Made by a program: the position numbers and the translations under genes. A stretch of DNA of 64,000 nt from an uncultured bacterium (GTDB taxonomy: Bacteria; Chloroflexota; UBA5177; JANWHV01). The notes below the pieces were generated by a model, which worked only from the letters and a program-made list of their open reading frames with translations, had not been told where the DNA came from and ran no database searches. Of this stretch, positions 7,595-26,210 are shown one piece after another. The first letter of the stretch is position 1. Every line of letters begins with the position of its first letter. The stretch is taken from the NCBI GenBank assembly GCA_963827235.1, contig CAWHAE010000012.1, positions 1,184,001-1,248,000 on the forward strand. The letters are read 5' to 3'.

Positions 7595-7975
7595 ATGGAT
7601 GGTTTCTCCTCCGGGCTGTCGGCCGCCCCCTCCGCGCGGGAGGTGTTCGATATCCTGTGGGAGACAATGGCCGATATCCTTGGCACCGCGGCGACGGCAA
7701 CGCTCTTGCGTCGCGCCGCCAAGCGCGGCATCGCCCGCCATGCTGCGTTGACCGGCGTGAGCATCAGGCAGCAGGATTTGACCTACTCCTATGTGCTGCC
7801 CAGTTCCTGGGAACAGGAGTCAAACCAGCAGGCACTGGACGCGCTGCGCACGCTGGCACTGGAGTTGCGCCCCTTACTGATTGAAATGACCGGACCGGTT
7901 GTGATCAGGCGTCTCGGTCAGGTGGCGGCGCTGTCCACTTTATGGTCCGTCTTGCAGGAGGAGGTTCGGACGTGA
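7595..7975 (+). CDS. Small helical hypothetical protein translationally coupled to the KaiC-like ATPase
   Basis: Open frame containing VFDILWETMADILGTAATATLLRRAAKR...LRPLLIEMTGPVVIRRL. Its TGA overlaps the GTG of kaiC (GTGA). The start could be 7562. Confidence 0.75.
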   Translation: MDGFSSGLSAAPSAREVFDILWETMADILGTAATATLLRRAAKRGIARHAALTGVSIRQQDLTYSYVLPSSWEQESNQQALDALRTLALELRPLLIEMTGPVVIRRLGQVAALSTLWSVLQEEVRT

Positions 7976-9462
7976 GTGCTGGCACGGTGGCGCCATCTAT
8001 CGAGCTCCTGGGTACCGGGAGCGCCGTCCTGGACAGCATTCTGGGCGGTGGTCTGCCTGCGCGCTCAGTAACCGTGATTGCCGGCCAGCCTGGATCCGGC
8101 AAGACGATTTTCGCGCTGCAACTCCAGTTCCATCTGGCGCGCCAGGGCAAGCGTTGCCTGTATTTCACGACCCTGTCGGAGCCCTCGCTCAAGCTGATCC
8201 ACTACATGCAGCTATTCTCCTTCTTCGATCAGCAACTGCTCGATGAGCAAATCCGCTTTGCGGATCTGGGCTCAGCTATTCGCGCCCGGGGAGCGAGCCA
8301 GGCGCTCGCCGAGATCAGCGCGCGGGTGGAACGCGAGGAGCCGGACCTGGTGATCATCGACAGCTTCAAGGCCATCTACGACCTGCTAGGCCCGCCCGGC
8401 GCCGGCCGCACTTTCGTCTACGATCTGGCCGTGTCGATGGCCGGCTGGGGGGCGACCACGCTGCTGGTCGGCGAGTATGCAGCACAGGATATCGTCACGG
8501 CGCCCGAGTTCTCTATTGCCGACGGCATCATTCGCCTGGGCAACCAACCGCAGGAGCTGACTGCCGTGCGGGTGCTGGAGGTGCTCAAGCTGCGCGGCGC
8601 CAATTGCATGACGGGCCAGCACTTCTTCGAGATCACCGAAGATGGGCTGGTTGTCTACCCACGTGTACGCGCCCCAGAGCTCAGCGTGACGGTGCCAGCC
8701 GGCAGCGCCGAGCGTTCCTCGACCGGTATCACCGGACTGGACGAGCTGCTGCATGGCGGTTTGCCGCACCGCAGCTGCACTCTGGTGCAAGGCGGCACCG
8801 GGACAGGGAAGACTCTATTGGCCCTCAGTTTCCTCATCGACGGCGCTGCACGAGGCAAGCGCGGTGTGATATTCACCCTGGAAGAGACGCCCGAGCAACT
8901 CCACGACATCGCCAGGGGCTTCGGCTGGGACCTGCCGGCGTTGGAGGCCCAGGGGTTGGTGCTCGTCCACTACACGTCACCGGTCGAGCTCTCCACCGAC
9001 CGCTTCCTCAATGTAGCCCGAGGGGTCATTCAGGAGTGGCATGCCCAGAGGGCTGTGCTTGACAGTGTCACGAGTGCAGGGATGGGCGTGTCTTCCGAGC
9101 GGCGGTTCAAGGAGCTGATCTATTCCCTGACGAAGCACTTCCGCGCCTTGGGCGTCACGTCGGTCCTCACCATGGAGGTCCCCGAACTGTTCGGTACGTC
9201 GCAGCTGACCGGCCACGGCGTCTCCTCTATCGCGGATAACGTGATCCTCCTGCGGTTCGTCGAGATAGAAGCGCGCTTGGAGCGGGCGATTTCGGTACTC
9301 AAGGCGCGAGGTGTCCACCACGAGATGGAGCTGCGCCGATTCCGCATCACCGATAGCGGCTTCCAGGTTAATGGGCCGTTCACGCACTATCGTGGCGTGC
9401 TGACGGGCGTGCCGACGCTCGCTCCGGCGGGGCCACAGCAGAGCGAATCAGGCGAGCCATGA
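7972..9462 (+). CDS. Double-domain KaiC-like (RAD55/RecA-fold) ATPase, module A
   Basis: Two P-loops (GQPGSGKT, GGTGTGKT), Walker B motifs (LVIIDSF, AVLDSV), EE in the C domain (TLEETP), KxR motifs (VLKLRG, VLKARG), and GVSSIADN at the KaiC S431/T432 position. GGAGG RBS. Confidence 0.92.
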   Translation: MSAGTVAPSIELLGTGSAVLDSILGGGLPARSVTVIAGQPGSGKTIFALQLQFHLARQGKRCLYFTTLSEPSLKLIHYMQLFSFFDQQLLDEQIRFADLGSAIRARGASQALAEISARVEREEPDLVIIDSFKAIYDLLGPPGAGRTFVYDLAVSMAGWGATTLLVGEYAAQDIVTAPEFSIADGIIRLGNQPQELTAVRVLEVLKLRGANCMTGQHFFEITEDGLVVYPRVRAPELSVTVPAGSAERSSTGITGLDELLHGGLPHRSCTLVQGGTGTGKTLLALSFLIDGAARGKRGVIFTLEETPEQLHDIARGFGWDLPALEAQGLVLVHYTSPVELSTDRFLNVARGVIQEWHAQRAVLDSVTSAGMGVSSERRFKELIYSLTKHFRALGVTSVLTMEVPELFGTSQLTGHGVSSIADNVILLRFVEIEARLERAISVLKARGVHHEMELRRFRITDSGFQVNGPFTHYRGVLTGVPTLAPAGPQQSESGEP

Positions 9463-10710
9463 GCACGGTCTCTGCTGTTCTTGGCACGGCAAGGCCGGTG
9501 ACGCGCGCCCTCTACGACGTAGCGCAGCTCCTGGAAGCGACCCAGAATGCCGAGACGCGCGTGCGAAGAGTGCTGACGCTGTTAGGGGAGATGGTTCCCT
9601 ACGACCAATGCGTGCTTCTCTGTGCCACAGAGGTGGCCATGCCCCGGATGACGTCGCTACCTCCTCTCGAAGAAGGCCCGGCGTCAGAGGTTAGCGCCGC
9701 GCTCGATAGCTTGTTGCAGTTGCTGAGGGAATCCGCGAGCGACCAGGCCGGTGCCGGCCTGCCGTCCTCCGCTGCGGGCGCTTTGAGCGGTGCATCTCAC
9801 CTGGCAGTACCGCTCGTCGCCTTGAACGAGGTGATCGGGATCCTGGCCGTGTGGCAGCGAGTCCCGGACGCCTACGGGGAAGTGGACGTGGGCCTGCTGT
9901 CGGTGGTTGCCGCGCAGCTTGCCTCCTACATGGCCGGACTCACGGCGCGCGATATGCTGGACCGCATGGTCGCAGCGGTGGCGCACGACCTCGGCAATCC
10001 GCTGATGAGTATCTCCGGTGTGAGCCAATTCCTGCAGCGGCACGTAGGACAACTGGGCGAGCCGGAGCGAGAACGATTTGCGCATGGCTTGAAGACCATC
10101 GAGACTACCACGTGGAGCATGACTACGCAACTCAACGAGCTGCTCGACTACGCGCGAGCGCAGACGGGTCGCTTGCTCGATCTGGACACCGAGCCTACCG
10201 ACGTCGTGGCGCTGCTTCGGCAGACAGTGGATGAATACCAGCGCTCGACCGAACGGCATACCCTGGTGCTGCAGACCGCCGAGGAGACGATTGTGACCAT
10301 GGTCGATCCGCGCCATCTGGGGCGTGCGGTCGCCAGTCTCCTCGTCAACGCCATCAAGTACAGTCCGGAGGGGGGACAGATCGTGGTCTCGGTCTCGCGG
10401 GCCGTCGGGATCCGACGGCCGGTGGTTGAGCATAACGATAGCCGACAATGGGCTCGGCATTCCTCGTGCCGACTTGCCGCACCTGTTTGAACAGTATTAC
10501 CGAGCCAGCAACGTAGCAACCACGATTCCCGGCTCCGGCATCGGACTTGCGAACGCTCGTCACACGATCGAGCGGCACAGCGGCACCATCACCATCGATA
10601 GTGCCGAGGGAGCGGGCACGACTGTCACCGTTCAACTGCCGCTGCTTCCGGCCGAGGTGCAGCCGACCTACGTCGCAGGCCAGGCAGCGATAGCGCCGGA
10701 ACAGGGCTGA
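9459..10710 (+). CDS. GAF-domain histidine kinase, split by a +1 frameshift at about 10407-10409 (pseudogene or sequence error)
   Basis: GAF (HLAVPLVALNEVIGIL), H-box (VAHDLGNPL) and N-box (LVNAIKYS) are in one frame. G1 (IADNGLGI), F-box (LFEQYYR) and G2 (GSGIGL) are in the next frame. Removing one G from gtcgggatcc restores VGSDGRWLSITIADNG. Confidence 0.85.
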
Positions 10711-10824
10711 TCGAGGACTGCTCCACGGCGTGCACCTGTGCAGCGGACCTCATCCTGCCGGGTGTTCTTCTTGAGGCGACGGCAGTCTTGCCTAAACCAC
10801 TCGCACCCCATTGCCGTGGCCGGC

Positions 10825-11274
10825 TCAATCGTCGGAAGCAGCCATCTCCGCGTTTGCGTCGGGCCACCGGGGCCCAAGGAAGCGGTGCAGCTGAAGCTCG
10901 AGATCGGAGAGATGAAACGGCTTGCGCATGACCACGTCCGCGCGGGCCGCCCGGGCCTGCAGCAGGTTTGCTTCGGTTATCAGGATGATTGGCGGCATCA
11001 CCGACCCATCAAGTGCGGCGTCCTGACGCAACATGGCTATCAGGGAGGCGCCGTTGAGATAGGGCAGCATCAAGTCGAGGATGAGCAAGGCAGGATGGTG
11101 CGCGCGCGCAAGCTCCAGCGCCTGCCGCCCGTGCAGGGCGATCAGCGGCGTGTAGCCCGCTTCGCGCACGATGAAGGCGACGGTCTCCGCCAGCGGCTCC
11201 TCGTCCTCCGCTATCAGCACCAGAGCCGGCTCCCGTGAATCCTGGGATGCTTGCGGGCTGGTCCTGCCGCTCAT
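10825..11274 (-). CDS. Stand-alone response regulator receiver, module B2
   Basis: LIAEDEE, LILDLMLP, ILIT and MRKPF, with no output domain. Paralog of 15260-15733. Confidence 0.88.
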   Translation of the reverse strand: MSGRTSPQASQDSREPALVLIAEDEEPLAETVAFIVREAGYTPLIALHGRQALELARAHHPALLILDLMLPYLNGASLIAMLRQDAALDGSVMPPIILITEANLLQARAARADVVMRKPFHLSDLELQLHRFLGPRWPDANAEMAASDD

Positions 11275-12959
11275 TCCTGCTCCTTGTTCGCTTCGCGGGC
11301 CATCGGCTGCCGGTCTCGTGCTACGGCGCGAGCGGGTGTGGCCGCTGACCGCGCCCGCGACCGCGCTGGGCCGGAATTCACCCTGCTCCCGCTCGATGCC
11401 TGCCAGTAATCCCGGCGCACTCTCCCCGGTCGAGCGCACCGCTATGCCCGCAGGCGCGGCTATCGTGAACTCGCGCAAACTGAGGTCGTGCGCCGAGAAT
11501 CGCATCTTGAGCACCGACAACACCCGGTAGAAGTGCCCGCGATAGATCACGCCCTGCAGCCACAGCACGTTCTCCGCGATGCCGCGAGCTCAGGTCCGTC
11601 TCCAGCTCCAGGTCCGACCCCGCAAGCGGGCCCGTCTCTTTCGTGAACAGCGCGCTGATCCGCCGCCGCTGCAGGGCGGCAATCAATGCCGAGAGGTAGT
11701 TCTGCACCCGCCGCGGACTGCTCCCTTCGCTCACCGCCCGCTCGACCACGGCGATGCTGTCGATGACCAGCCGCCGCGCCCCCGTGCCGTCGAGCGCACC
11801 CAGCAACTGGTCGGCCAGCGCGTCGGCATCCAGCTCTACCGCCGGATAGTGCAGCAGCGTCAGACCGCCTCCGGGCGCCAGCGCGGCCCGCAGCTCCTGG
11901 CCCAGGTTGAAGGCATCCGCCTTGAGCAGCAGCTGGCGCCGGTCCTCGTGAAACCCCAGGAACACTACCGGCTCGCCCGCCCGTACCCCGGCCAGGGCAA
12001 AGTGCAGGCCCAGCAGCGTCTTGCCTGAGCCCCCGCTGCCGATCACGATGGTGGTCGTGGCACGCGTCAGCCCACCCCCAAGCAGCGCATCCAGGGCCGG
12101 AAGGTCAAAGGTCGCCCGCTCGAGCGCTGCCGCCTCGACAGCCGCCGCCGGCTCGCCGTCGTCTCGGTCCGCCGCCGTCACGGCCTGGCGGCGCCTGTCG
12201 CACGACCCGGGCCTCCAGTCGCGGCGAGGTCACTACCCCCGCGCTACTCAGCTCCAGGCTGTGCAGACCCGACAGCGGCGTGGCACCCCGCGCCTTCACC
12301 ACCTCCAACCGCCGCCGCTGCCGCTCGCCGTCCACGCCAAAGTGCAGCCCGATGATCGTGTCCGCCGTCGTCGCCTCCGGAAAGAACTGCGGATCCCGAA
12401 TCTCCGCCTCGGCGGTGATGATGGTGGTCGTCTCCTGCGCGCTCAGCGTGGTGCCGACGTCGAACAGGAACTGCCGCCCTGCCAGCGGCTCCGCGTCGAC
12501 GGCCCGCATGCCGCTGAACCCGTCCAGCACCACCAGGCTCGCCCGCTCCGCCCGCACCAGATGGATCAGCGACTGGCTCGCTCCCGCCAGCCCGGCACTC
12601 AGAAACGGCTGCAGACTGAGCAGCTTCACCCGCTCGCCGATCAGCGTGGGATCGTAGAACGCGTAGGCACTCAGGTGCGCCAGCAGCTTGCTCGGCGCTT
12701 CCGACAGCACGCTGAAGATCAGCACCTGCCGCCCCGCCCGCGCCGCCGCCCAGGCCATCTGCAGGGCCAGCGTCGTCTTCCCCGAGCCCGGCGGCCCCAC
12801 CACGATCGCCAGTGTGCCGCGTGCCAGACCGCCGCCCAGAATCAGGTCGAGGTTCGGCACGCCGCTTGGGTCGACCACCCTCGGCGCCGCGTCCACGACC
12901 GTGCTCGACGTTACCTGCTTGAGCTCATGCATGTAGCCCTCCCCAGTCACTTCACAGCC
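11111..12959. repeat. Direct duplication, copy 2 (RR 5' part plus kaiC-like), partner of 15570-17415
   Basis: Aligns to 15570-17415 at an offset of about 4.46 kb. The kaiC core differs only by scattered substitutions and three 1-nt insertions. Confidence 0.92.
11271..12932 (-). pseudogene. KaiC-like double-domain ATPase, module B2, with three single-base insertions (about 12192, about 11584, 11322)
   Basis: Near-identical to 15730-17388. Length is 1662 vs 1659 nt. The protein is spread over ORFs 12105-12950, 11378-12181 and 10825-11568. It may be intact in vivo if the indels are assembly errors. Confidence 0.85.
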
Positions 12960-13125
12960 GTAGTGTGATTTGCCTCCTCCAACGTGGATGGCATGCTGGG
13001 TTTCCGCTCTGCCTCACCCCCGGGGAAGCACGAGAGCGATCGCGGTTCCGTGCCAGCCGTCTGCGCATGCCGCGGCCTTGCGCGGTGCACAGACTGCTTT
13101 CCACCCAGATAAGGAGCTTGGCCAT
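12947..13125 (-). pseudogene. Deletion remnant of a MerR-PAS histidine kinase gene (first 5 codons fused to the C-terminal tail)
   Basis: Reads MAKLL|IWVESS. The intact paralog starts MAKLLQE and ends HIWVERS...SWHGTVVAIVLP. The remnant has DGWHGTAIALVLP in a shifted frame. Junction at 13110/13111. Confidence 0.85.
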
Positions 13126-13228
13126 CCTGACTTCCCCCAGCTGTACGTGGTGACGCGCATCGGTGGCAACGGGCTCCGCGACTTGACTGAGCACCATTAT
13201 CCAGATGTACCTCACACCTAACTGTACA

Positions 13229-13306
13229 ATCATAGCAGCAACCAGGTACAATAGCCAGAGTCTATTGAGGCTATGTCTTGACACAGTGATTGGACCCGCC
13301 TATACT
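13229..13306. promoter_or_regulatory. Divergent sigma70-type promoter pair with CAATAG-N7-CTATTG palindrome (module B2)
   Basis: Plus strand: TTGACA(13278)-17-TATACT(13301). Minus strand: TGGCTA-17-TATGAT with an extended TG. Palindrome at 13249-13267. Confidence 0.7.
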
Positions 13307-13642
13307 CCAGACACCGCCCCGGCTCTCGCGCCGAAGACGCACCGAGAATGCAACGCGGTACAGCTCTGGGAGGCAGCCGTCAGGGCCTTGGCAGCCACTC
13401 CGAAGAGCGAAGCGGTCTCGGGGCGTGCAGGCCGTGGTGGAGACTCCCGCCACGAGGATCGTCGTGGCACCTGCCGGCATGGGGGCACCATACCGGAAAG
13501 TGATGCCAATCAAGGAGCGAAAACCGGCGACCATGCTTCGACAGCGCTCGGGACCGGCGACGACAACTGGACGCACTCACCGTTGGCGCCAGCAGCTCCA
13601 TTCTGGCTCGACTGCTCGCACGAGTATTCAAGGAGGCACGGC

Positions 13643-13990
13643 ATGCAGCACGGTAACGGTATCCATATTGAGAACAGCGAGCCGCAGAAGAGCGCCCTCG
13701 TCGACGGGCTGCTGCAAGACGGAATCGACCGCGCGGCATCCTGGCGAGCACGCCTACGGGAGTCGACGATGGCACGGCAGGCGGCCGAGCGTCGCTATGC
13801 CCGTGAGGGGTCGGCAGCAAGTGCCAACAGTCCCGAGTCCTCGGCCCTGGCCCGAGAACGAGCGGTTGTTCTCCGGATGGAGTTGACGCGCATCGTGGCC
13901 GAGGATCGGGCTTGGATGCAGCAGCATGGTGTCGAAATGCTCGAGCCTCTCACGCGCAAGCGCCGCTCAGAGAGAAGCACACAGCCTTAG
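13643..13990 (+). CDS. Hypothetical helical protein (115 aa)
   Basis: AAGGAGG RBS before ATG 13643, downstream of the consensus promoter at 13278-13306. No recognisable family. Confidence 0.5.
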   Translation: MQHGNGIHIENSEPQKSALVDGLLQDGIDRAASWRARLRESTMARQAAERRYAREGSAASANSPESSALARERAVVLRMELTRIVAEDRAWMQQHGVEMLEPLTRKRRSERSTQP

Positions 13991-14126
13991 AACGCAGTCC
14001 ACGGTTCTTCCGGCATCGATCTGAGCGCCCGGGCGTCGAACTCCGGTGGGCCCCTCGTGGCCACATCGCAGCCCGCCGGCCACGGGCGATCGCATGGAAT
14101 GCCCATTCGGAGAGCCGGCGCGTGCT

Positions 14127-15263
14127 CTATCGCGTACGGTCCCTCGCCTTTTCGCGTTTCTCCTGGTCACGCACGGTCTGCAATACGGGCTGCGGAGCCC
14201 GTCCGCGCAGCTCGCGCCAGGCTACCGTGCCCACCGCCTGCAACAAGCCGGCCAGCGGAGCAGCAAACAGAGCTCCCCAGATGCCGAACAGCTCGCTCCC
14301 CGCCACCAGGCCGATCAGCGCAGTTGCCGGATGGATGCCGACGGCCTTGCCCATCACGCGCGGGCCCACGATATCACCCTCGATGACGTGCACGACGGCG
14401 AAATAGGCAAGGACCACGAGCGAGAGAACCCAGCCCTGGAAGAACGCGACCAGGACGCATACGGCGCCGGAAACGAGCACGCCGATGATCGGAATGAACT
14501 CCATGAAGAAGGCGAGGACGCCCAGCAAGATGGCATAGGGGACGTGGAGGATCGACATCCCGCCGCCAACCAGTATTCCGATGAGCAGCGCCATGGTCAA
14601 CGTGCCGCGTATGTAGCCGCCCACCACCTGGTTCACAATACCGATCAGCTGGGTTGTGCGCTCGCGATATGCCCCGGGCGTCTCGCGGCGCAACCGCTGG
14701 GATATGCGTGGGCCGTTAGCCGTGAGATAGACACTGAGAATCAGAATGAGAATCATGTCGATGACCGTGTTGACGATCCCGGAGACGATTCCCAACGATT
14801 GCGTTGCAGCGGCCGTGCCCGTGCTCTGGAGATAGGTAATCGCCTGCTGCTGCGTGTGGTCGAGCTTCGCTTGAGTAACCCCGAAGGGTTTGAGCGCCGT
14901 AAGGAGCTGCGGCTCGAAGCGCTTGAGCTGAAGCTGGTATTTCGGCAGGTTGTCGACCAAGCTTGTGACCTGGTTTGCCGCCGTGTCCACGATCAGCGCG
15001 AGCAGCCCGAGAATCACGGCGAAGCCAAGCACGTAGGCCGCGGCAATCGCCAGCGGCCGCGGCATCCAGCGCGCCAACACCTTGACCAGCGGCGTGAGCG
15101 CGAACGCCACGATGCCGCCGAGCAGCAGCACCAGGATGGTCTTGGTGACGTGGGCGAGCAGCCATACGCCGACCACGAGCACGCCGGCCCAGGCCAGGAT
15201 GATCAGCGGCAGGTACAGCGCGCGCTGCCATGCCGCGGGCACCTTGTCAGTATCGGCGCTCAT
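14127..15263 (-). CDS. AI-2E family (PerM/YtvI-like) membrane transporter
   Basis: Multi-TM protein with AFALTPLV, GGYIRG, FIPIIG, IEGDIVGPRVMGKAVGIHP and FGIWGALFAAP. Start overlaps the receiver stop codon. Confidence 0.92.
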   Translation of the reverse strand: MSADTDKVPAAWQRALYLPLIILAWAGVLVVGVWLLAHVTKTILVLLLGGIVAFALTPLVKVLARWMPRPLAIAAAYVLGFAVILGLLALIVDTAANQVTSLVDNLPKYQLQLKRFEPQLLTALKPFGVTQAKLDHTQQQAITYLQSTGTAAATQSLGIVSGIVNTVIDMILILILSVYLTANGPRISQRLRRETPGAYRERTTQLIGIVNQVVGGYIRGTLTMALLIGILVGGGMSILHVPYAILLGVLAFFMEFIPIIGVLVSGAVCVLVAFFQGWVLSLVVLAYFAVVHVIEGDIVGPRVMGKAVGIHPATALIGLVAGSELFGIWGALFAAPLAGLLQAVGTVAWRELRGRAPQPVLQTVRDQEKREKARDRTR

Positions 15264-15733
15264 CGTGATTCAGGGTGCCGATCCGACTGATCGTCCGCGG
15301 ACACCGGGCCCGTCGCGGCAGTGGGTTCGGGTGCCAGGAAGCGCCGCAGCACGACCTCCAGATCCTCAAGATGGAACGGCTTGCGCAGCACCGTGTCGGC
15401 ACCGGCCGCCCGAGCGCGGGGAAGGCTGGCGCCGGTCATCACGACGATCGGCGGCGCGCTCGTGCCGTCGCCCTTGGCATCCGCTCGCAACGCGGCAATG
15501 ACGGCCTCGCCATCCAGGTACGGCAGCATCAGGTCGAGGATGAGCAGCGCCGGACGCCGTGCCCGTGCGAGCTCCAGCGCCTCTCGCCCGTGCAGGGCGA
15601 TCAGCGGCGTGTAGCCCGCTTCGCGCACGATGAAGGCGACGGTCTCCGCCAGCGGCTCCTCGTCGTCGGCGATCAGCACCACGGCCGCCTCCCGTGCATC
15701 CTGGGATGCTTGCGTGCTGGTCGTGCCGCTCAT
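15260..15733 (-). CDS. Stand-alone response regulator receiver, module B1
   Basis: LIADDEE, LILDLMLP, VMTG and LRKPF. ATGA overlap with kaiC. Confidence 0.9.
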   Translation of the reverse strand: MSGTTSTQASQDAREAAVVLIADDEEPLAETVAFIVREAGYTPLIALHGREALELARARRPALLILDLMLPYLDGEAVIAALRADAKGDGTSAPPIVVMTGASLPRARAAGADTVLRKPFHLEDLEVVLRRFLAPEPTAATGPVSADDQSDRHPESR

Positions 15734-17415
15734 GCCTGCTCCCTGTTCGCTTCGCGGGCCATCGCTTGCCGGTCTCGTGCACGGCGCGAGCGGGTGTGGC
15801 CGCTGACCGCGCCCGCGACCGCGCTGGGCCGGAATTCACCCTGCTCCCGCTCGATGCTCGCCAGCAATCCCGGCGCACTCTCCAGCGGACCGCGCACGGC
15901 AATGCCGGCGGGCGCGGCTATCGTGAACTCGCGCAGCGTGAGGTCGTGTGGCGAGTACCGCATCTTGAGCACCGACAACACCCGGTACAGCCGCCCGCGC
16001 AAGATCACGGCCTGCAGCCACACCACGTTCTCCGCTACACCCGAGCTCAGGTCCGTCTCCAGCTCCAGGTCGGACCCGGCAAGCGGGCCGGTCTCCTTCG
16101 TGAACAGCGCGCTGATCCGCCGCCGCTGCAGGGCGGCAATCAATGCCGAGAGGTAGTTCTGCACCCGCCGCGGACTGCTCCCTTCGCTCACCGCCCGCTC
16201 GACCACGGCGATGCTGTCGATGACCAGCCGCCGCGCCCCCGTGCCGTCGAGCGCACCCAGCAACTGGTCGGCCAGCGCGTCGGCATCCAGCTCTACCGCC
16301 GGATAGTGCAGCAACGTCAGACCGCCTCCGGGCGCCAGCGCGGCCCGCAGCTCCTGGCCCAGGTTGAAGGCATCCGCCTTGAGCAGCAGCTGGCGCCGGT
16401 CCTCGTGAAACCCCAGGAACACCACCGGCTCGCCCGCCCGTACCCCGGCCAGGGCAAAGTGCAGGCCCAGCAGCGTCTTGCCTGAGCCCCCGCTCCCGAT
16501 CACGATCGTGGTCGTGGCACGCGTCAGCCCACCCCCAAGCAGCGCATCCAGGGCCGGAAGGTCAAAGGTCGCCCGCTCGAGCGCTGCCGCCTCGACAGCC
16601 GCCGCCGGCTCGCCGTCGTCTCGGTCCGCCGCCGTCACGGCCTGGCGGGCCTGGCGCACGACCCGGGCCTCCAGTCGCGGCGAGGTCACTACCCCCGCGG
16701 CACTCAGCTCCAGGCTGTGCAGACCCGACAGCGGCGTGGCACCCCGCGCCTTCACCACCTCCAACCGCCGCCGCTGCCGCTCGCCGTCCACGCCAAAGTG
16801 CAGCCCGATGATCGTGTCCGCCGTCGTCGCCTCCGGAAAGAACCGCGGATCCCGAATCTCCGCCTCGGCGGTGATGATGGTGGTCGTCTCCTGCGCGCTC
16901 AGCGTGGTGCCCACGTCGAACAGGAACTGCCGCCCTGCCAGCGGCTCCGCGTCGACGGCCCGCATGCCGCTGAACCCGTCCAGCACCACCAAGCTGGCCC
17001 GCTCCGCCCGCACCAGATGGATCAGCGACTGGCTCGCTCCCGCCAGCCCGGCACTCAGAAACGGCTGCAGGCTGAGCAGCTTCACCCGCTCGCCGATCAG
17101 CGTGGGATCGTAGAACGCGTAGGCACTCAGGTGCGCCAGCAGCTTGCTCGGCGCTTCCGACAGCACGCTGAAGATCAGCACCTGCCGCCCCGCCCGCGCC
17201 GCCGCCCAGGCCATCTGCAGGGCCAGCGTCGTCTTCCCCGAGCCCGGCGGCCCCACCACGATCGCCAGTGTGCCGCGTGCCAGACCGCCGCCCAGAATCA
17301 GGTCGAGGTTCGGCACGCCGCTTGGGTCGACCACCCTCGGCGCCGCGTCCACGACCGTGCTCGACGTTACCTGCTTGAGCTCATGCATGTAGTCCTCCCC
17401 AGTCACTTCACAGCC
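15570..17415. repeat. Direct duplication, copy 1
   Basis: Partner of 11111-12959. Confidence 0.92.
15730..17388 (-). CDS. Double-domain KaiC-like ATPase, module B1 (552 aa)
   Basis: Start MHELKQ after GGGGAGG. P-loops GPPGSGKT and GSGGSGKT, Walker B LVVLDG and LVIDS, KxR motifs VVKARG and VLKMRY, and SSGVAEN at the phospho-site region. Confidence 0.92.
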   Translation of the reverse strand: MHELKQVTSSTVVDAAPRVVDPSGVPNLDLILGGGLARGTLAIVVGPPGSGKTTLALQMAWAAARAGRQVLIFSVLSEAPSKLLAHLSAYAFYDPTLIGERVKLLSLQPFLSAGLAGASQSLIHLVRAERASLVVLDGFSGMRAVDAEPLAGRQFLFDVGTTLSAQETTTIITAEAEIRDPRFFPEATTADTIIGLHFGVDGERQRRRLEVVKARGATPLSGLHSLELSAAGVVTSPRLEARVVRQARQAVTAADRDDGEPAAAVEAAALERATFDLPALDALLGGGLTRATTTIVIGSGGSGKTLLGLHFALAGVRAGEPVVFLGFHEDRRQLLLKADAFNLGQELRAALAPGGGLTLLHYPAVELDADALADQLLGALDGTGARRLVIDSIAVVERAVSEGSSPRRVQNYLSALIAALQRRRISALFTKETGPLAGSDLELETDLSSGVAENVVWLQAVILRGRLYRVLSVLKMRYSPHDLTLREFTIAAPAGIAVRGPLESAPGLLASIEREQGEFRPSAVAGAVSGHTRSRRARDRQAMAREANREQA

Positions 17416-18992
17416 ATGGCGCTCGTCACGGCCATGCCGCTCGTCACGGCCGTCTTCTGCCCTGCCCGTTTCGACGTACCGAGCATGCCCGGCTTCTGCG
17501 CTTCTCCGCCCAGGGGAAGCACGATCGCTACCACGGTCCCGTGCCAGCTGCTCGCCGAATCTTCCGCGTCGACAGCGGGCACACTCCGTTCCACCCAGAT
17601 GTGGCCGCCGTGCGCGGACACGATGGCCCGGCACACGTACAGGCCAAGCCCTGCACCCCGTGTCCCGGTCTCGGCATCGGGCGCCCGCCAGTAGCGATCG
17701 AACACGTGCGGCAGGGCGGCCGGCGCGATGCCTATGCCCGTATCCGCCACGCGCACCCACGCCCAGCCGCCGGCCTCATCCGGCGCCGCGTCCTTCGTCA
17801 CCGCCCCGTCGGCCGTCTGCACGGGCGGCGCTGCCGCCATCTCAAGTCGCACCTCGATCGTACCCCCGTCCGGTGAGTACTTGATCGCGTTGCTCAACAG
17901 ATTGTCTAGCACCTGTCGCAGCCGGATGCGATCGCCGGCCACCATCAGCGGTCCAGGCGGCCCCGCGACCGTGACCCGGTGCCGCGACGTCTGCTGCAGC
18001 GCATCTTCGGCCGCCTGCAGCGCCATTGCCGTCAGGTCCACGCCTTCCGGATCCAGGTCGTGAATGAGCAGTCCCTTGGTGGCCCGGGACGCGTCCAGCA
18101 CGGTCTGCATCACCCGAATCAGGTGCTCCGTGCTGCGCTCAGCGACAGCCAGGTGGTGCATGACCTGCTGTGTCGCCGCCTCGTCCCCCGCGCGCAGCCT
18201 GGCGCCGACATGGCGGGCCAGTTGCAGTCGCCCCAGAATGGTGGTCACCGGGTTGCGCAGATCATGCGCCGCCACCGCGAGCCAGTCCTCGGGCAGCAGA
18301 GAGGCATCCGGCGGCATCACGCGGCCCACGCCCACGGCGCCCGTAGACTGGCCCTCCTCGTCCCGCAGCGGTGTGACCGTCCACGACGTCTGCAATTGCT
18401 CGCCTGTCGCGCCGGGCAGCAGCAGCGTTACGTCCCGGTGCCGCGTGCCGGTCTGCGCGGCCCAGCGCAGCGGCAGCGTCTCCAGCGCGAGCGGCGGCAG
18501 CTCGCCGTCGAGGGAGCGCGCGGGTACGTCCGCTTCAAGATGCTCCGGCTCCAGGTGCAGCAGTGCCCGCAGGGCCGGATTCATCGAGGTAACACGTCCT
18601 TCGCGGTCTCCCACGACCACGAGGTCGGCCATTCCCGCGACCACCGCCTGCCAGTATGCCGCATCGCTCATCACCGCCGGTCCGTCGGCGCCCGGCAGGC
18701 CCGCGTAGTCCTCGGGTCCGGGCACCAGGGCGCCGCTGTCGAGCTCCTTCGCCACACGGCGCAGACTGCCCCGCCGCCCCGGCTTCAGCAGGGAGCGCGC
18801 GATGAGCCGCACGCGCGCCATGTCGTCGATCGAATACAAGCGCGTTGCCCTGGGCGATCGCAGGGGCCGCAGGATTCCGGCGTCCTCCCAGGAGCGCAGC
18901 CGCGGCGGCGGCACTCCGGTGAACGCCGCGACGTCGGCTATGAGGAAGGTGGCTTTCTGCTCGAGCACCGTCTCCTGAAGGAGCTTGGCCAT
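17403..18992 (-). CDS. Soluble histidine kinase with N-terminal MerR-type HTH and PAS domain
   Basis: MerR wHTH: FLIADVAAFTGVPPPRLRSWEDAGILRPLRSPRATRLYSIDDMARVRLI. PAS: DLVVVGDREGRVTSMNPA...VTPLRDEEGQSTGAVG. H-box AAHDLRNP, N-box LLSNAIKYS, G1 DTGIGI, G2 GAGLGL. No TM segment. Confidence 0.92.
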   Translation of the reverse strand: MAKLLQETVLEQKATFLIADVAAFTGVPPPRLRSWEDAGILRPLRSPRATRLYSIDDMARVRLIARSLLKPGRRGSLRRVAKELDSGALVPGPEDYAGLPGADGPAVMSDAAYWQAVVAGMADLVVVGDREGRVTSMNPALRALLHLEPEHLEADVPARSLDGELPPLALETLPLRWAAQTGTRHRDVTLLLPGATGEQLQTSWTVTPLRDEEGQSTGAVGVGRVMPPDASLLPEDWLAVAAHDLRNPVTTILGRLQLARHVGARLRAGDEAATQQVMHHLAVAERSTEHLIRVMQTVLDASRATKGLLIHDLDPEGVDLTAMALQAAEDALQQTSRHRVTVAGPPGPLMVAGDRIRLRQVLDNLLSNAIKYSPDGGTIEVRLEMAAAPPVQTADGAVTKDAAPDEAGGWAWVRVADTGIGIAPAALPHVFDRYWRAPDAETGTRGAGLGLYVCRAIVSAHGGHIWVERSVPAVDAEDSASSWHGTVVAIVLPLGGEAQKPGMLGTSKRAGQKTAVTSGMAVTSAMAVK

Positions 18993-19096
18993 CTTGCACT
19001 CTCCTGTTTTGTGTGTGCAGACACGTGACCCGCGTGCACTGCCCTCGAACGAGTCTCCTCGCCATTGTCCAGATGAGCTTCAGACCTATACCATCC

Positions 19097-19174
19097 AGCA
19101 TACCAGCAGCCCGCACCAATAGCCAGAGTCTATTGAGTCTATATCTTGACACGTTGTGTGCACCCGCCCATACT
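19097..19174. promoter_or_regulatory. Divergent promoter pair with CAATAG-N7-CTATTG palindrome (module B1 / desaturase)
   Basis: Plus strand: TTGACA(19146)-17-CATACT(19169). Minus strand: TGGCTA-17-TATGCT. Palindrome at 19117-19135. 34 of 36 nt match 13249-13284. Confidence 0.7.
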
Positions 19175-19307
19175 GCAGACGCACTCCTCTCCACGCTCGC
19201 CGGTCGTGCCGACGTGAAGCAGGGTCAGGCACCGACATGCAGCGCCAGCCCGGACCGCGTCCCGGCGCGACGCGTACACGTGCGGCACGAACGCTGGAGG
19301 ATCCAGG

Positions 19308-20267
19308 ATGAATACGCTGTTCTCGAGACATGATGCATATCGTATAGATCACCTGATCACGCTCGCGGGCGTGGTCGCACCGTTTGTCGCCCTTCTCTAC
19401 GCCATCCATCAGCTCTGGGATCGTGCGGTAACCGGCCAGGACCTCGTCCTCTGCGCCGTACTGTACGCGCTGACGGGGATGGGCATCACGATTGGATTTC
19501 ACCGCCTGGCGACGCATCGCAGCTTCGTTGCCGCGGTGCCGCTACGCGCCTTGCTGCTCGCATTGGGCTCGATGGCGGTAGAAGGCCCGGTGATCTACTG
19601 GGTATCGACGCATCTGGAGCACCACGCCAAGAGCGATCGCGAAGGCGATCCGCACAGTCCGCGGGACGGCTTCTGGCACGCTCACCTGGGCTGGATGTTC
19701 GGCGCTTTCTCCGCGTCACCCTCGACCTATGGCCGCCATCTGCTGCACGATCGGCTCGTACAGTTCATGTCGCGCACGTTCGTCGGCTGGGTCGTTCTGA
19801 GCTTCGCCGTGCCTGGGCTGCTGGACGGCTGGCTCTCGCGCGGCAGTGCCGGCGGCTTCGGCACGGGATTCTGGCATGGCATACTCTGGGGAGCATTGGT
19901 TCGCATGTGTCTGACCCATCACGTGACCTGGAGCGTGAACTCCATTTGCCACACCTTCGGCCGTCGTCCCTTCGCCGCGACGCGGGATCGCAGTCGCAAC
20001 AACTGGGTCGTGGGACTGCTGGCCTTTGGCGAGGGCTGGCACAACAACCACCATGCATTTCCTTCTGCCGCCTACCACGGCTTCGCCTGGTGGCAATTCG
20101 ACATGTCGGCATATCTGATTCGACTGTTCAAGGTCGCCGGATTGGCCACGAAGGTGCAGATGCCGACTGCTGAAGCCGTGACACGAGAGCGCGCTCGAAC
20201 CAGACCCGCCGACGCGGCGGTTGTCGCCGGGGCCGGCTGGGAGTCTACCGTACGCCGGGCGAGGTAG
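19308..20267 (+). CDS. Delta-9-type acyl-CoA/acyl-lipid fatty acid desaturase
   Basis: His boxes GFHRLATH, HLEHH and GEGWHNNHH, plus DPHSP and TWSVNSICH. GGAGG RBS. Confidence 0.95.
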   Translation: MNTLFSRHDAYRIDHLITLAGVVAPFVALLYAIHQLWDRAVTGQDLVLCAVLYALTGMGITIGFHRLATHRSFVAAVPLRALLLALGSMAVEGPVIYWVSTHLEHHAKSDREGDPHSPRDGFWHAHLGWMFGAFSASPSTYGRHLLHDRLVQFMSRTFVGWVVLSFAVPGLLDGWLSRGSAGGFGTGFWHGILWGALVRMCLTHHVTWSVNSICHTFGRRPFAATRDRSRNNWVVGLLAFGEGWHNNHHAFPSAAYHGFAWWQFDMSAYLIRLFKVAGLATKVQMPTAEAVTRERARTRPADAAVVAGAGWESTVRRAR

Positions 20268-21790: not shown

Positions 21791-24700
21791 TCAGGCTGCA
21801 CCGGGGCAGGTCTTGTGATAGGGGCGATCGCCAAGGTACTGCGCCCATTCCTGGGCCGTGAGATTGCGGTCGGCGACCTCGCACGCGCGTGCCGGCCAGG
21901 AGGCGAGGTCCACGTCCCACTCGTGTATGTTCCCGCTGCCGTCGCCGGCGGCGAGCAGCTTGCCGTTTGGGCTGAAAGCCGCGGCAGTCACCCACTGCGA
22001 CAGCCCGGGCAAGGGAGGCCCTAAGGGCTGGCGCGTCGCGACATCCCACAGCTGCACGGTGGTCTCACCGCCTCCTGTCGCCAGAAGCGTGCCGTCGGGG
22101 CTGAAGGCCACCGCGCTGACAAAACTCGTCAGCTGCAGCGGGGCTCCGTCCGCGCAGGCGCAGGACACCTTCCACAGCCGCACCGTGTAGTCGTCGCCTC
22201 CCGTGGCCAGCAACCTCCCGTCCGGGCTGAAGGCGACGCTATTCACGGCGCCGATGTGTCCGGTCAGCGGCCTGCCGTACGGGCGTCGGTGCACGACATC
22301 CCACAGCCTGACCGTCCCGTCCGACCAGACCGAGGCCAGCGTCTTGCCGTCCGGACTGAAGGCAAGATCCCGCAGCTCACCTTGCCGGTTCTCGATCACC
22401 GGCCGCAGCAGCTTGCCGAGCCGCAGATCCCACAACTCCACCTGGGTGCGGTCGTAGTAGCCTACTGCCGCGATGGAGGCGTCCGGGCTGAGAGCCATCC
22501 GCATCACGGAGTCCGCGGTGGCCGTCAGCGTCGTGCGCAGCGCCTTGACCTGGGTGCCGCGACGCACGTCGTACACCGTGATGAAACCTTCGCCGACCAC
22601 GTCGCCCGCCGTGATCAGCGTCTTGCCGTCGCGGGAAAACGCGCCCGCCGATCCCCACAGCAGGTACGCGCCAGGCCACGTGCCGGACTCCCACGTCGCG
22701 GTGTTCCAGATCTGCGCAGTGCCCGCCCAGCCGCCGGACACCAGCAATCGCCCGTCGGGGCTAAACGTCAGGGATCCGACAATTTCTTGGTCGGGGTCGG
22801 TGAGCAAGGCGGGGCCCGCGAGCGCGGTGGCCACATCCCATGCCGCTATCGTGCCATTGCCGTCCGCGGCGAACAGGGCGGTGTCCTTGGCGCCGAACGC
22901 CAGGACGTTGGGAGCGCCGGTGTGGCTGTCCAGCGGCGTCGCGAGCAGGCGCCGGCCCTTCATATCCCACAGCTCGATGCTGCCACCCATGTCCCCCGAT
23001 GCCAGCAGCGTGCCATCTTGGCTGAAGGCCAGGGCGATCACGGTTTTGGCATGGCCTGTGAGCGCGGTGCCGATCTCGTTTCCGCTCTGGACATCCCAGA
23101 GCCGGATCGTCATGTCCCCGCCACCCGAGGCAAGCATCTTGCCGTCGGGGCTGAAAGCCAGGCTGCCCACGTCATCCACATGGCCCAGCAGGGTCCTCCG
23201 GACCGGCGAGCCCTCCACACTCCAGAGCTGCACGGGGCCGGTATACTCGCCCGCGGCCAGGGTCTTGCCGTCGGGCGCAAAAGCCATGGAGTTCACTTGC
23301 TGTGAGGTTGCGAGCGTGGCCGCGAGCTTCTTCCGCGGCATGTCCCACAGATACACGGCGTTGCCATAGGCGAATGCCGCGGTCTTGCCGTCGGGGCTTA
23401 CGGCGGCGCAATCCACGTGTGTGTAGCCGGGGGAGGGCTCGACGGCGGACAGTGAGAAGACCGGACCGGCCGGCCGCCGCCGCGCGATGTCCCACACCTC
23501 CACGCTCCGCTGATCGTAGCTGGTAGCTGCTATCGTCTTGCCGCCGGCGCCGAACGAGAGGTTATACAGGCCGTGGAGGTGGCTGATCAGCGGTGGCCCT
23601 ACACTGCGGTGGTGCGCCACGTCCCAGAGGTAGATGGCGCTCCCGGGCATTGACGTGGCCCAGGCCAGCGTCCTGCCGTCAGGGCTCACTGCAAGCGCCC
23701 ACGATGTCATGCCCCGGGTTGGCAGGAACGACGTCAGCGCGGCAGGCCGCGCCTCCAGTGTCTGGAGCAGGCCGCCGCGGGCTTCGACGGTGTCGGCCGT
23801 GCGCCGTGCCTCCAGACTGAGCAGCAGCGCCAGGTCATACTGATCCGTCAGGTGGGTGATGGCTTGCGCCGCCAGCTGGCGGGAGAGCGCCGTGGCCTCG
23901 GCGGCAACGGCGTGTGTCCGCTCCGTGCGGGCAGTGGACGCGCTGTGGAGCGCCGCCAGGCTCAGCCCGGCAGCCATCACCAGGAAGATCGCCAGCAGGC
24001 CGACCAGGGCTCGGAGGCGCAGCGCCGCCTGCCGGGCCGTGGCCAGCTCCCGCGCCTGCCGCTCGCGGTCCGCGGCCTCCTGCCGCTGCTCTTCCGCCGC
24101 GCCCGCCTCCAGGAACGCCATTTCCCGCCTGCTCGGCGCGTTCCGCTGCGCCCAGCCGATCGCCTCGGACAGCAACGTCGCCCGGTACAGGCTGTCCGCC
24201 GGTCGCCCCCGCCGCTCCCACTCCGCCGCCGCCGCGCTGATGCCCTGCTGCAGCCGGATATCCTCCCGGGCCTCGTGCAGCCACTCCGCCAACCGGGGCC
24301 ACTCCCGGATCAGCGCCTCGTGGCTCACCTCGATCATGCTCGTGTCGCCGCTCTCGCTGCTGGTCAGCAGGCGCGCCTGGATAAACGCTTCGCTCACCTG
24401 GGCCAGCAGCGCCGTCCGCTCGGGGTCCGGCAGGCGCAGCTCGTCCAGCGCCGCCCGCCGCCGCGTCGTCTCTTGCTCCGTCGGGCCGGGGTCGATCAGG
24501 CGCAGAAAGAGGCCGCGTGCCAGCCGCCGGTGCTCCGGCGCCGGCAGCGCGGCATAGGTGGCCTCGGCCTGCCGGGCCAGGGCTCCTCGCACCCCACCAA
24601 GCTCCTGGTACGCCGCCAGCGTCAGCGTGCACCCGCTCCGGCGCGCGAAGAGCTGGTCCAGGGTGAATTGGAGCAGCGGCAGGGCGCCGGCCTGCCCCCG

Positions 24701-26210
24701 CACCTCGAAGAGCAGATCGCCGACCAGGTTCTCCTCGAACGTGAGCCCGACGTCGGGCAGCAGCGCCGGCTGCTCGATGGCCTCCCGCAGCTCGTGCTGT
24801 GCCATGGGCAGCACGACCGTGTGCTGCGCGTCGAGCAGATTGCCCAGGGCCGGATAGTGCAGCGGCCGGTCGTAGAAGTCGGCACGCAGCGTCAGCAGGA
24901 CCAGCAGCGCTCCCCGCGGCTCGGTGGCGGCGGTGACGAGCAGGTCGATGAAGGCACGCCGCTCCGCCTCGTCCGCCGTCAGCGTGAACAGCTCCTCGAA
25001 TTGATCGACCACCAGTACGACGCGGCTACCCGGCCCCGGCATCAGGCGAGCGGCCAGCAGATGCAGGCCCCGCTCCGAGTCCTCCAGATCAGTGCGCAGG
25101 GTGGCGAGCAGCTGCTGGGCAGCGCGCGCTCAGCGCCACGGTCAGCGCTTCCAGCGGATGTGTCCCCGGCACCAGCGGCTCCAGGTACGTCCACTGCTCG
25201 CTGCCCGGCACGGCGCCCCGCTGCAGTCGGGGCAGCAGGCCGGCGAGCACCACGCTGGACTTCCCGGATCCGCTCGGCCCCACCACCGCCAGCAGCCGTC
25301 GCTCGGCCCGGATACCGGCCGAAAGGCCCGCCAGCAGCTCGGCCACCAAGCTCTCCCGCCCGAAGAAGTCGCCGGCGTCCGCGCGCTGAAAGGCCCGCAG
25401 GCCCTTGTACGGGTTGCGGGGCGCCGCGTCCGGTGAGACGTCGCCGGCAGCGTGCTCCGCGGGCACCGATTCGCCGGCGCGCTGAAGTGCCACGGCGATA
25501 TCCTGCAGCGCGGTGCCATAGCGGCTGCCGCGGGCGTCCACGTACTGCATGCCGCCCCAGCCGAGGGCGACGCACTCCATCCACTGCTCGCCCGCTGCCC
25601 AGATTGGGTACACGGGGCGCCGGTACATCTCGGCGACCCGCAGCTCGTCGGCGACGTAGCGCGAGGCGCGCGAGCTCGGCGAGGCGACCAGCAAGACGGC
25701 GCGCGCGGCGCGGATGGCGTCGCGCAGCGTCTGCTCCCAGTCCGGCGTGCCCGGCTGCAGTCCCAGGTCGTCGTTCCAGGTCACCACGCCCAGCCCGTGC
25801 AGATCGCCCGCCAGCCGCGTGACCAGGGCACGATCGGCGCGGGCATAGGAGACGTAGACGAAGGGCTGGCCAGGCAGGGCGACGGCAAACGTGCCTCTCG
25901 CCTGGTGCTCGAAGCCGTCGAGCGGCGCATGGCCATCGGGAAGCGCGTCCGGCGGTCCCCGGCGGCGAGAGACGGTGGCCTCCAGCGCTGCAGCTTCCCG
26001 CTCCGAGAGTCCCAGCGCGGCAACCAGGAGCGCCACGGTATCCCGATAGGGCGCCTGGCGCGAGCCGCGCTCATAGGCACTGATCGCCCCCGGTGAGAGC
26101 CGGGCGCGCTCCGCCAGCGCCTCTTGCGAGAGCCCTGCCGCCACACGGTAGTGCTTCAGCAGCGCCCCGAAGCTCAGCTGTTCGGGACTTGGCGGTCCGT
26201 CATGCGCCAT
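21791..26210 (-). CDS. XRE-HTH + TIR + nSTAND1 NTPase + TM + WD40 protein, frameshifted at about 25105-25130
   Basis: HTH: FGALLKHYRVAAGLSQEALAERARLS. TIR: VYVSYARAD...SRYVADEL. NTPase: NPYKGLRAF...FFGRE, Walker A GPSGSGKSS, Walker B VVDQFEELF, LPLLQFTL, SHEALIREW. TM: LVGLLAIFLVMAAGLSLAAL. Many FSPDG/LWD repeats. Reading through the shift gives LATLRTDLEDSERGLHLLAARLMPG. Confidence 0.9.

Follow-up and report, generated by a model that had tools for sequence, protein, structure and literature searches.

Four coupled minus-strand genes at positions 14127-18992 of the 64,000-nt stretch of Chloroflexota DNA analysed here (the window) encode, in order of transcription, a histidine kinase, a KaiC-like ATPase, a receiver and an AI-2E transporter, with a fatty-acid desaturase gene divergent from them (list of open reading frames (ORFs) and Pfam). 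On balance, the first three genes probably form a Chloroflexota variant of the described stress-signalling module of KaiC-like ATPase, kinase and single-domain receiver, in which the kinase has acquired an N-terminal MerR domain of the CarH/TnrA type and for which we infer a mechanism below. This N-terminal domain, which lacks the MerR coiled coil, is the novel element. As judged from their sequences, the three proteins keep their catalytic residues, are translationally coupled and are conserved as a trio. The window corresponds to G000:C12:1184001-1248000 of a soil-type source genome (G000) of 8.0 Mb in 21 contigs, 95.9% complete with 9% contamination, and its named relatives are from Chloroflexota.

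The kinase gene ends in TGA, which is followed by 14 nt including GGGGAGG and then by the ATG of the KaiC-like gene, and the KaiC/receiver and receiver/AI-2E junctions are each an ATGA overlap; all three junctions were read directly. ORFs, domains and junctions match the description given in a first-pass annotation of this DNA, namely four tightly coupled minus-strand genes with a 14-nt gap followed by overlaps, and the receiver has no output domain, as was also stated there, since Pfam finds a response-regulator domain in it and nothing else.

Relatives of the kinase were gathered from a protein collection, genome contigs, genomes of the same genus and metagenome contigs, and synteny was assessed by local tblastn. 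Alignment of the whole kinase against genome contigs was swamped by the generic kinase pattern, with only L001-L003 of 80 loci being true relatives, and alignment of the N-terminal part against metagenome contigs gave 9 loci. The distinct loci number eight: the window, L090 (a paralogue on contig C17 of the source genome), L088 (G001), L002, L108 and L084 (G002), L097 and L098. L002 is the same locus as L089 (G003), and L099, which is 99.8% identical, is counted with it. In 8/8 of these loci the gene immediately downstream of the MerR kinase is that of KaiC, the receiver follows KaiC in 7/7 loci that reach that far, and the trio is kept down to ~48-54% kinase identity. AI-2E and the desaturase recur in only one of the seven other distinct loci, L097, which is the nearest relative and has the whole five-gene arrangement with 63-85% protein identity. 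Other genes flanking the trio show no pattern, save for repeated SPFH/Band_7 genes. The conserved unit therefore appears to be kinase-KaiC-receiver, and AI-2E a recent, lineage-specific passenger, because it is found downstream only in L097 among the other loci. The conservation of gene order asked for in the first-pass annotation, with KaiC-like and receiver-only genes as neighbours of the kinase, is seen for the trio and not for AI-2E or the desaturase.

Among reference genomes the kinase was found in no genus but that of the window, where it is present in 4/5 genomes including G000; in the rest of the class it was found in 0/16 genomes. Relatives of the module KaiC (E <= 1e-60) are present in 40/401 sampled genomes of the phylum. 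ORFs were called in 26 of these KaiC loci with 1.5 kb of flanking sequence, and 64 of the 114 ORFs were scanned with Pfam; this set excluded locus L125, the ORFs of KaiC itself and some ORFs that were small or overlapped others. A single-domain receiver is encoded directly downstream of KaiC in 12/25 loci examined, and directly upstream of KaiC are a PAS kinase without HTH (helix-turn-helix domain) in L134 and L131 and a REC kinase in L130. In a quick maximum-likelihood tree of 32 KaiCs, in which the careful search was unfinished, L084, L108, L125 and L127 were left out and L126 and L129 form long branches, six kinase-linked KaiCs form one branch (SH-like approximate likelihood ratio test, SH-aLRT, 100) nested among kinase-less KaiC-receiver pairs. 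This nesting as one branch is consistent with the MerR kinase having been recruited once to a pre-existing KaiC-receiver pair, and the pair itself appears older and wider in distribution than the kinase. In G001 (L088, G001:C10, 12061-14039) a second, diverged KaiC-receiver pair (54% and 51% identity) is present directly after the trio, and its KaiC falls outside the kinase-linked clade in the tree.

The kinase consists of a winged HTH (~15-86), a Pro/Gly linker, a PAS domain (110-225), a dimerisation and histidine phosphotransfer (DHp) domain with H243, and a catalytic domain. MerR_1 scores 32.6 bits against a Pfam cut-off of 21.6, and MerR Pfam domains are present in 53/61 best kinase relatives (E <= 1e-61; protein collection); the other eight are mostly shorter, and subsequent matches drop to E ~1e-37 and are without MerR. 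Most of the invariant columns of the 36-member kinase alignment fall in the HTH region, and the nearest solved relatives of the HTH in a PDB profile search, CarH (3.7e-10), CarA (7e-8), TnrA (5.5e-7) and GlnR (7e-6), all bind DNA. The AlphaFold2 (AF2) model of the kinase (pLDDT 77.1, pTM 0.60; HTH blocks 83-93) contains a confident four-helix winged HTH, with helices at 18-25, 29-37, 55-67 and 74-86 and a wing at 44-53, followed beyond residue 86 by a disordered, low-confidence Pro/Gly linker, the PAS domain, a two-helix DHp and the catalytic domain. The coiled-coil helix and C-terminal effector pocket of canonical MerR factors are absent from the kinase by alignment and AF2, no long hydrophobic helix is present in the AF2 model, and Pfam finds no receiver domain within the protein. 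With the MerR coiled coil absent from the model, dimerisation would have to come from the kinase core; in CarH, dimerisation comes from the sensor module. The H-box histidine H243 and the N and G boxes are present, and H243 is kept in 33/36 aligned family members. The intact N-terminal MerR-type HTH and the complete H/N/G boxes reported at first sight were thus confirmed, and the HTH proved to be strongly conserved.

Across 42 relatives of the KaiC-like protein there is no variation in the two P-loops, the two Walker B aspartates, E78 or E329. Ser448 and Ser449 align on S431 and T432 of the solved KaiC structures, and Ser449 is the majority residue of the subfamily. With the circadian equivalog models of NCBIfam the protein reaches 163.4 bits where the cut-off is 408 and 103.4 bits where it is 546, and is not a circadian KaiC equivalog. 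Pfam models of KaiA and KaiB have no match in the 8.0-Mb, 95.9%-complete genome, while the Synechococcus control was found, in agreement with the first-pass observation that kaiA and kaiB are missing. The receiver carries D24, the phospho-acceptor D67 and K118, which are conserved in 19 aligned receivers, and its acidic pocket is present. Prediction of a KaiC-receiver complex gave a score of 0.00 in two runs made without controls and weighs neither way. The features of the locus and its surroundings are listed in Table 1.

Table 1. Features of the kinase-KaiC-receiver locus and its surroundings (positions in the window unless given as residues)
Feature	Position	Strand	Details and evidence
Soluble MerR-HTH/PAS histidine kinase	17403-18992	-	529 aa; Pfam, 36-member alignment, PDB profile search, AF2
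Kinase Pfam domains	MerR_1 18-66, PAS_4 123-224, HisKA 236-306, HATPase_c 353-494 (residues)		Pfam
Double-domain KaiC-like ATPase	15730-17388	-	552 aa; two PF06745 domains; PDB alignment, 42-member alignment, NCBIfam
Single-domain receiver	15260-15733	-	157 aa; Response_reg 19-127 only, short tail; Pfam
AI-2E family transporter	14127-15263	-	378 aa; Pfam
Membrane fatty-acid desaturase FA_desaturase (PF00487), divergent neighbour	19308-20267	+	Pfam
Intergenic region, kinase operon to desaturase gene	18993-19307	.	315 nt
Repeated promoter element	19062-19180	+	four genome copies; conserved upstream block ~19062-19083
Sigma-70-like promoter TTGACA-17-CATACT	19146-19174	+	faces desaturase; 10/12 positions match
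Second KaiC-receiver copy	10825-12950	-	KaiC part split over three ORFs by single-base indels
Third KaiC-like gene	7942-9462	+	506 aa; 33% identical to module KaiC
GAF-HisKA kinase, translationally coupled to third KaiC	9459-10780	+	catalytic domain in another frame after ~10420

PADLOC models gave only weak partial P-loop and HTH matches to the module (best 5e-10 over 39 residues), and no match to a known anti-phage defence system, such as the two-component-like Detocs.

The signalling route that we infer begins with a KaiC-like hexamer that would hydrolyse ATP and probably autophosphorylate at Ser449, activities that could report energy state, temperature or elapsed time. On the model of Pseudomonas, KaiC would bind the kinase via the PAS domain and shift it between its kinase and phosphatase states. 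The kinase would phosphorylate the receiver on Asp67, and the receiver, which has no output domain, may for that reason act as a phosphate sink or feed back on KaiC. The kinase dimer would present two HTHs on flexible linkers and bind DNA directly, so that the kinase would itself be the transcriptional output, with DNA binding depending on its conformation, its phosphorylation or its sequestration by KaiC. The DNA-binding head of the kinase could be the missing transcriptional output of such modules.

Several observations weigh against this route. The equivalent of E318, the general base of the KaiC autokinase, is His or Arg in the KaiC subfamily, making autophosphorylation uncertain. The phospho-accepting His is lost in 3/36 kinase family members that retain the HTH, so that phosphotransfer is perhaps not essential to the family. 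Binding of KaiC to the kinase and to the receiver is carried over from the Pseudomonas proteins. Several nearby genes are frameshifted, and the assembly or the locus may for this reason be degraded. The sole strong intergenic promoter points to the desaturase, and its spacer is 17 nt long. The upstream regions of 7 orthologous kinase loci have no motif or palindrome in common.

The search of these 7 upstream regions gave no common 8-10-mers and one 12-mer (<=2 mismatches) in 5/7 only, and no common inverted repeats (5-nt arms, 0-12 nt spacer), with no excess over 50 shuffles. MerR-controlled promoters typically have a 19-20 nt spacer with a palindromic operator inside it; no MerR-style palindromic operator in a 19-20 bp spacer was found, the nearby promoter having a shorter spacer and facing the other gene. 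Comparison by eye with a CarH direct-repeat pattern and a TnrA/GlnR site gave no fit. Promoter-like sites in 12900-19400 number five, against 0.5 +/- 0.7 in shuffles.

The intergenic promoter belongs to a repeat, other copies of which are present at 13194-13312, C12:1159068-1159257 and C17:134770-135000. The repeat contains a conserved upstream block, tandem GAGTCTAT and TTGACA-17-(C/T)ATACT, and three copies continue into a conserved ~100-nt leader. The C12 and C17 copies outside the window precede paralogous 130-aa proteins, one of which follows an SPFH/Band_7 gene, and the four copies together suggest a small regulon. Downstream of the promoter copy at 13278-13306 (TTGACA-17-TATACT), a search for a homologue of the 130-aa protein gave none. 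An Rfam scan of 12800-19500 (E <= 1) gave no match, placing repeat and leader outside known RNA families. The repeat is kept in L097, and a DNA search for it in G001-G004, other genomes of the genus, gave no match. Owing to this absence from G001-G004 and to the lack of a motif common to the orthologous upstream regions, there is no evidence that the 19062-19180 repeat is the kinase operator. The stretch 19097-19174, put forward in the first-pass annotation for a binding assay with the HTH, contains a plus-strand promoter and belongs to a genome-specific repeat.

A minority view, unlikely but deserving weight, is that the module is the same and the HTH is not its main output, serving in autoregulation, chromosome tethering or protein contact, while the signal leaves via the phosphorylated receiver binding KaiC or an unlinked effector. 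This agrees with the wide occurrence of KaiC-receiver pairs without this kinase (12/25 loci), to which the second copy in the window and the second pair of G001 can be added, with the HTH-less PAS kinases adjoining related KaiCs in L134 and L131, and with a receiver that is fully canonical and the lack of a conserved operator. It is opposed by the HTH being the most conserved part of the kinase, by its presence in 53/61 best relatives and by the DNA binding of all its nearest solved relatives.

At the other extreme, and rather improbably, the kinase would be a bifunctional transcription factor, the two CarH/TnrA-like HTHs of which bind DNA in one signalling state set by a KaiB-less KaiC hexamer, itself a gauge of energy, temperature or duration, and buffered by the receiver. 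It would then provide KaiC systems outside cyanobacteria with the transcriptional read-out that they are missing. In this lineage its targets would be genes for membrane lipids (desaturase and SPFH protein), serving homeoviscous or stress adaptation, and it would represent a wider, undescribed class of kinases with N-terminal MerR-HTH.

The full five-gene model of the first-pass annotation, in which the kinase is a transcription factor controlling the desaturase and its own operon, KaiC is the temperature or energy input and AI-2E is included, is improbable. The full arrangement does recur in L097 at the protein identities given above; AI-2E recurs nowhere else. The module has no desaturase next to it in G001, G002 and G003 (where found, their desaturases are on other contigs), in L098 or in the paralogue L090; the desaturase is present in 70/401 genomes of the phylum, and a MerR module lies within 1.5 kb of it in only 2/30 desaturase loci, that of the window included. 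A lead in favour of the model comes from L145 (G304:C170:1-5328; G304 is from another family, f26), in which a MerR-GAF gene is divergent from a receiver-desaturase-Band_7 operon. Its HTH module is 47% identical to that of the window kinase, a PAS-GAF ORF follows it directly, and the desaturase is 56% identical to that of the window. The 9-nt core ATTGTCCAG of the conserved upstream block is also present in the G304 intergenic region. This match is within chance expectation, because ~0.65 matches (14 nt, <=2 mismatches) are expected by estimate and three overlapping windows over one site were seen, and the search for the repeat itself in G001-G004 was negative, as stated above. As an output of the system, the desaturase thus retains this one weak lead and is not upheld by its neighbourhood, which recurs in 1/7 loci; it is possible, and at most a lineage-specific target.

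A second, independent KaiC-desaturase neighbourhood was observed in L112 (G069:C475), where a kinase-less KaiC-receiver pair is divergent from an acyl-ACP-type desaturase (FA_desaturase_2).

A KaiC-based circadian or hourglass timer of the cyanobacterial or purple-bacterial type is very improbable: the KaiC homologue has two domains, both ATPase sites and Ser at the main phosphosite, but KaiB and KaiA are missing from the genome, KaiC falls far below both equivalog cut-offs (163 against 408 and 103 against 546 bits) and the kinase is without the KaiB-like domain of SasA.

The surroundings of the trio include three features that were overlooked in the first-pass annotation: the four-copy repeat at 19062-19180, the second KaiC-receiver copy, and the third KaiC with its frameshifted GAF kinase. 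The second copy is up to ~99% identical to the first over the 5' two thirds of kaiC and 72-86% identical towards the receiver, and differs from it by four inserted bases and one deleted base, none of them in homopolymers. Its kinase gene has been reduced by deletion to 45 nt of the 3' end (13013-13057), and the second copy is preceded by a repeat element of its own (13194-13312). If its indels are real, this copy resembles a duplicate in decay, a pseudogene, that underwent partial gene conversion; the alternative is an assembly error. The third KaiC-like gene is nearer to canonical KaiC (261 bits against the cut-off of 408), and the GAF-HisKA kinase gene coupled to it is frameshifted.

At the second trio locus of the source genome (L090, G000:C17, 8094-9576) the kinase is split between two frames (residues 1-102 and 84-494). 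On the minus strand of the window at 21791-26210, an ORF of 373 aa with HTH_31, TIR and the N-terminal part of nSTAND1 is followed after 46 nt by an ORF of 1083 aa with the remainder of nSTAND1 and WD40, and the pair resembles a single large NTPase of the TIR-STAND-WD40 conflict type, interrupted by a frameshift or a stop.

That the genes are chance neighbours or part of a decaying locus, with no joint function, is hardly credible, since the frameshifts in the second KaiC copy, the GAF kinase, the C17 kinase paralogue and the nearby STAND gene stand against four intact, coupled genes in the window and a trio order conserved to ~48-54% kinase identity.

Similar N-terminal domains are found beyond the kinases linked to KaiC. 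With the first 100 kinase residues as query, a full HMMER scan returned 335 proteins at E <= 1e-3 and 26 at E <= 1e-10. Of 150 listed proteins with the HTH module, 16 were scanned with Pfam. Kinases of the form MerR-(GAF/PAS)n, 532-1326 aa long, account for six of them and MerR-GAF/PAS proteins that have no kinase domain for five, and the rest comprise one MerR-GAF-LuxR protein, one with an ABC ATPase and three with MerR only. This suggests that sensor kinases with N-terminal MerR form a broader class, apparently undescribed. Part of P0257 as query matched at E <= 1e-12 in 8/401 genomes of the phylum; the matches in G192 and G208 are MerR-HTH_3-cupin regulators, and the HTH module proper is present in six genomes (G000-G003, G304 and G384). 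The link to KaiC seems specific to the PAS-kinase orthogroup, because the module contigs of G304 and G384 (5.3 and 7.4 kb) are without KaiC. Another signalling protein of the lineage with an N-terminal HTH of the MerR clan, a 1222-aa HTH_17-(PAS)n-GGDEF-EAL protein, is encoded in G003 (L002, 12460-16128) ~0.8 kb downstream of the trio.

Many bacteria other than cyanobacteria have KaiC homologues, and RpaA orthologues are rare outside cyanobacteria (PMC5520375). A kinase that has its own DNA-binding domain and is strictly linked to KaiC turns the route from such homologues to gene expression into a compact and directly testable question, namely whether KaiC gates the DNA binding of its partner kinase, and the related N-terminal MerR modules on several other GAF/PAS kinase families suggest an unappreciated class of DNA-binding histidine kinases.

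The first-pass annotation had presented the system as a candidate undescribed one, but the module of KaiC-like ATPase, kinase and single-domain receiver and the phosphate-sink idea are in print. According to a preprint on Pseudomonas (10.1101/2022.01.26.477890), KaiC homologues there 'virtually always' adjoin a histidine kinase and often a single-domain receiver, KaiC-kinase binding was detected by two-hybrid and pull-down with the PAS domain being sufficient, and KaiC-receiver binding was also detected. KaiC was proposed to act via the kinase, with the receiver as phosphate sink, and in the same preprint the DNA-binding regulator downstream of KaiC, kinase and receiver is described as unidentified (10.1101/2022.01.26.477890). 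Because this preprint already describes them, the trio and most of the proposed logic are not new; the DNA-binding head on the kinase is. No paper on a MerR-HTH histidine kinase tied to KaiC was found in the literature searched, and the supplements of 10.1101/2022.01.26.477890 could list such neighbours.

The present module would belong functionally with these published modules. It shares with the Pseudomonas modules of groups I and III a double-domain KaiC, the lack of KaiA and KaiB, and one predicted operon with a PAS kinase and an output-less receiver. It differs from them in the N-terminal MerR-type domain of its kinase, in its phylum (Chloroflexota), in the translationally coupled order kinase-KaiC-receiver and in having no CsrA or EPS-sortase neighbours.

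In the KaiC-SasA/CikA-RpaA system of Synechococcus elongatus, likewise, a histidine kinase reads the state of the KaiC hexamer and sets the phosphorylation of a receiver. Unlike that system, the module described here is without KaiA and KaiB, has a MerR HTH where SasA has its KaiB-like domain, has a receiver without the DNA-binding domain carried by RpaA, and has a KaiC that is no equivalog.

A kinase acting as transcription factor, as suggested in the first-pass annotation, has precedents in ChiS of Vibrio cholerae and the AraC-bearing hybrid kinases (HTCS) of Bacteroides thetaiotaomicron, which also combine a histidine kinase and a DNA-binding domain in one polypeptide. In the ChiS work, DNA-binding kinases are called 'uncommon, but not unprecedented', and phosphorylation of ChiS is reported to lower its DNA binding. 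ChiS and HTCS are membrane hybrids that contain their receiver internally and bind DNA through a C-terminal domain of ChiS or AraC type, whereas the kinase of the window is soluble and non-hybrid, with an N-terminal MerR-type domain and the receiver as a separate protein. Membership in this hybrid class is excluded by the order HTH-PAS-HisKA-HATPase_c, the lack of an internal receiver and the lack of a long hydrophobic helix.

The HTH of the kinase is of the same subtype as those of CarH/LitR, CarA and TnrA/GlnR, MerR-type regulators with no canonical coiled coil, in which the DNA-binding domain is likewise tied by a linker to a separate module, the oligomeric state or partner of which decides DNA binding. 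The kinase differs from these regulators in that a PAS histidine kinase forms its C-terminal module and a B12-binding domain is absent. In the DesK-DesR system of Bacillus subtilis, which controls the des desaturase gene and involves no KaiC, temperature is sensed by DesK in the membrane and the DNA-binding domain is part of DesR; the locus described here resembles it as a two-component system beside a fatty-acid desaturase gene and differs in that its desaturase link is not conserved.

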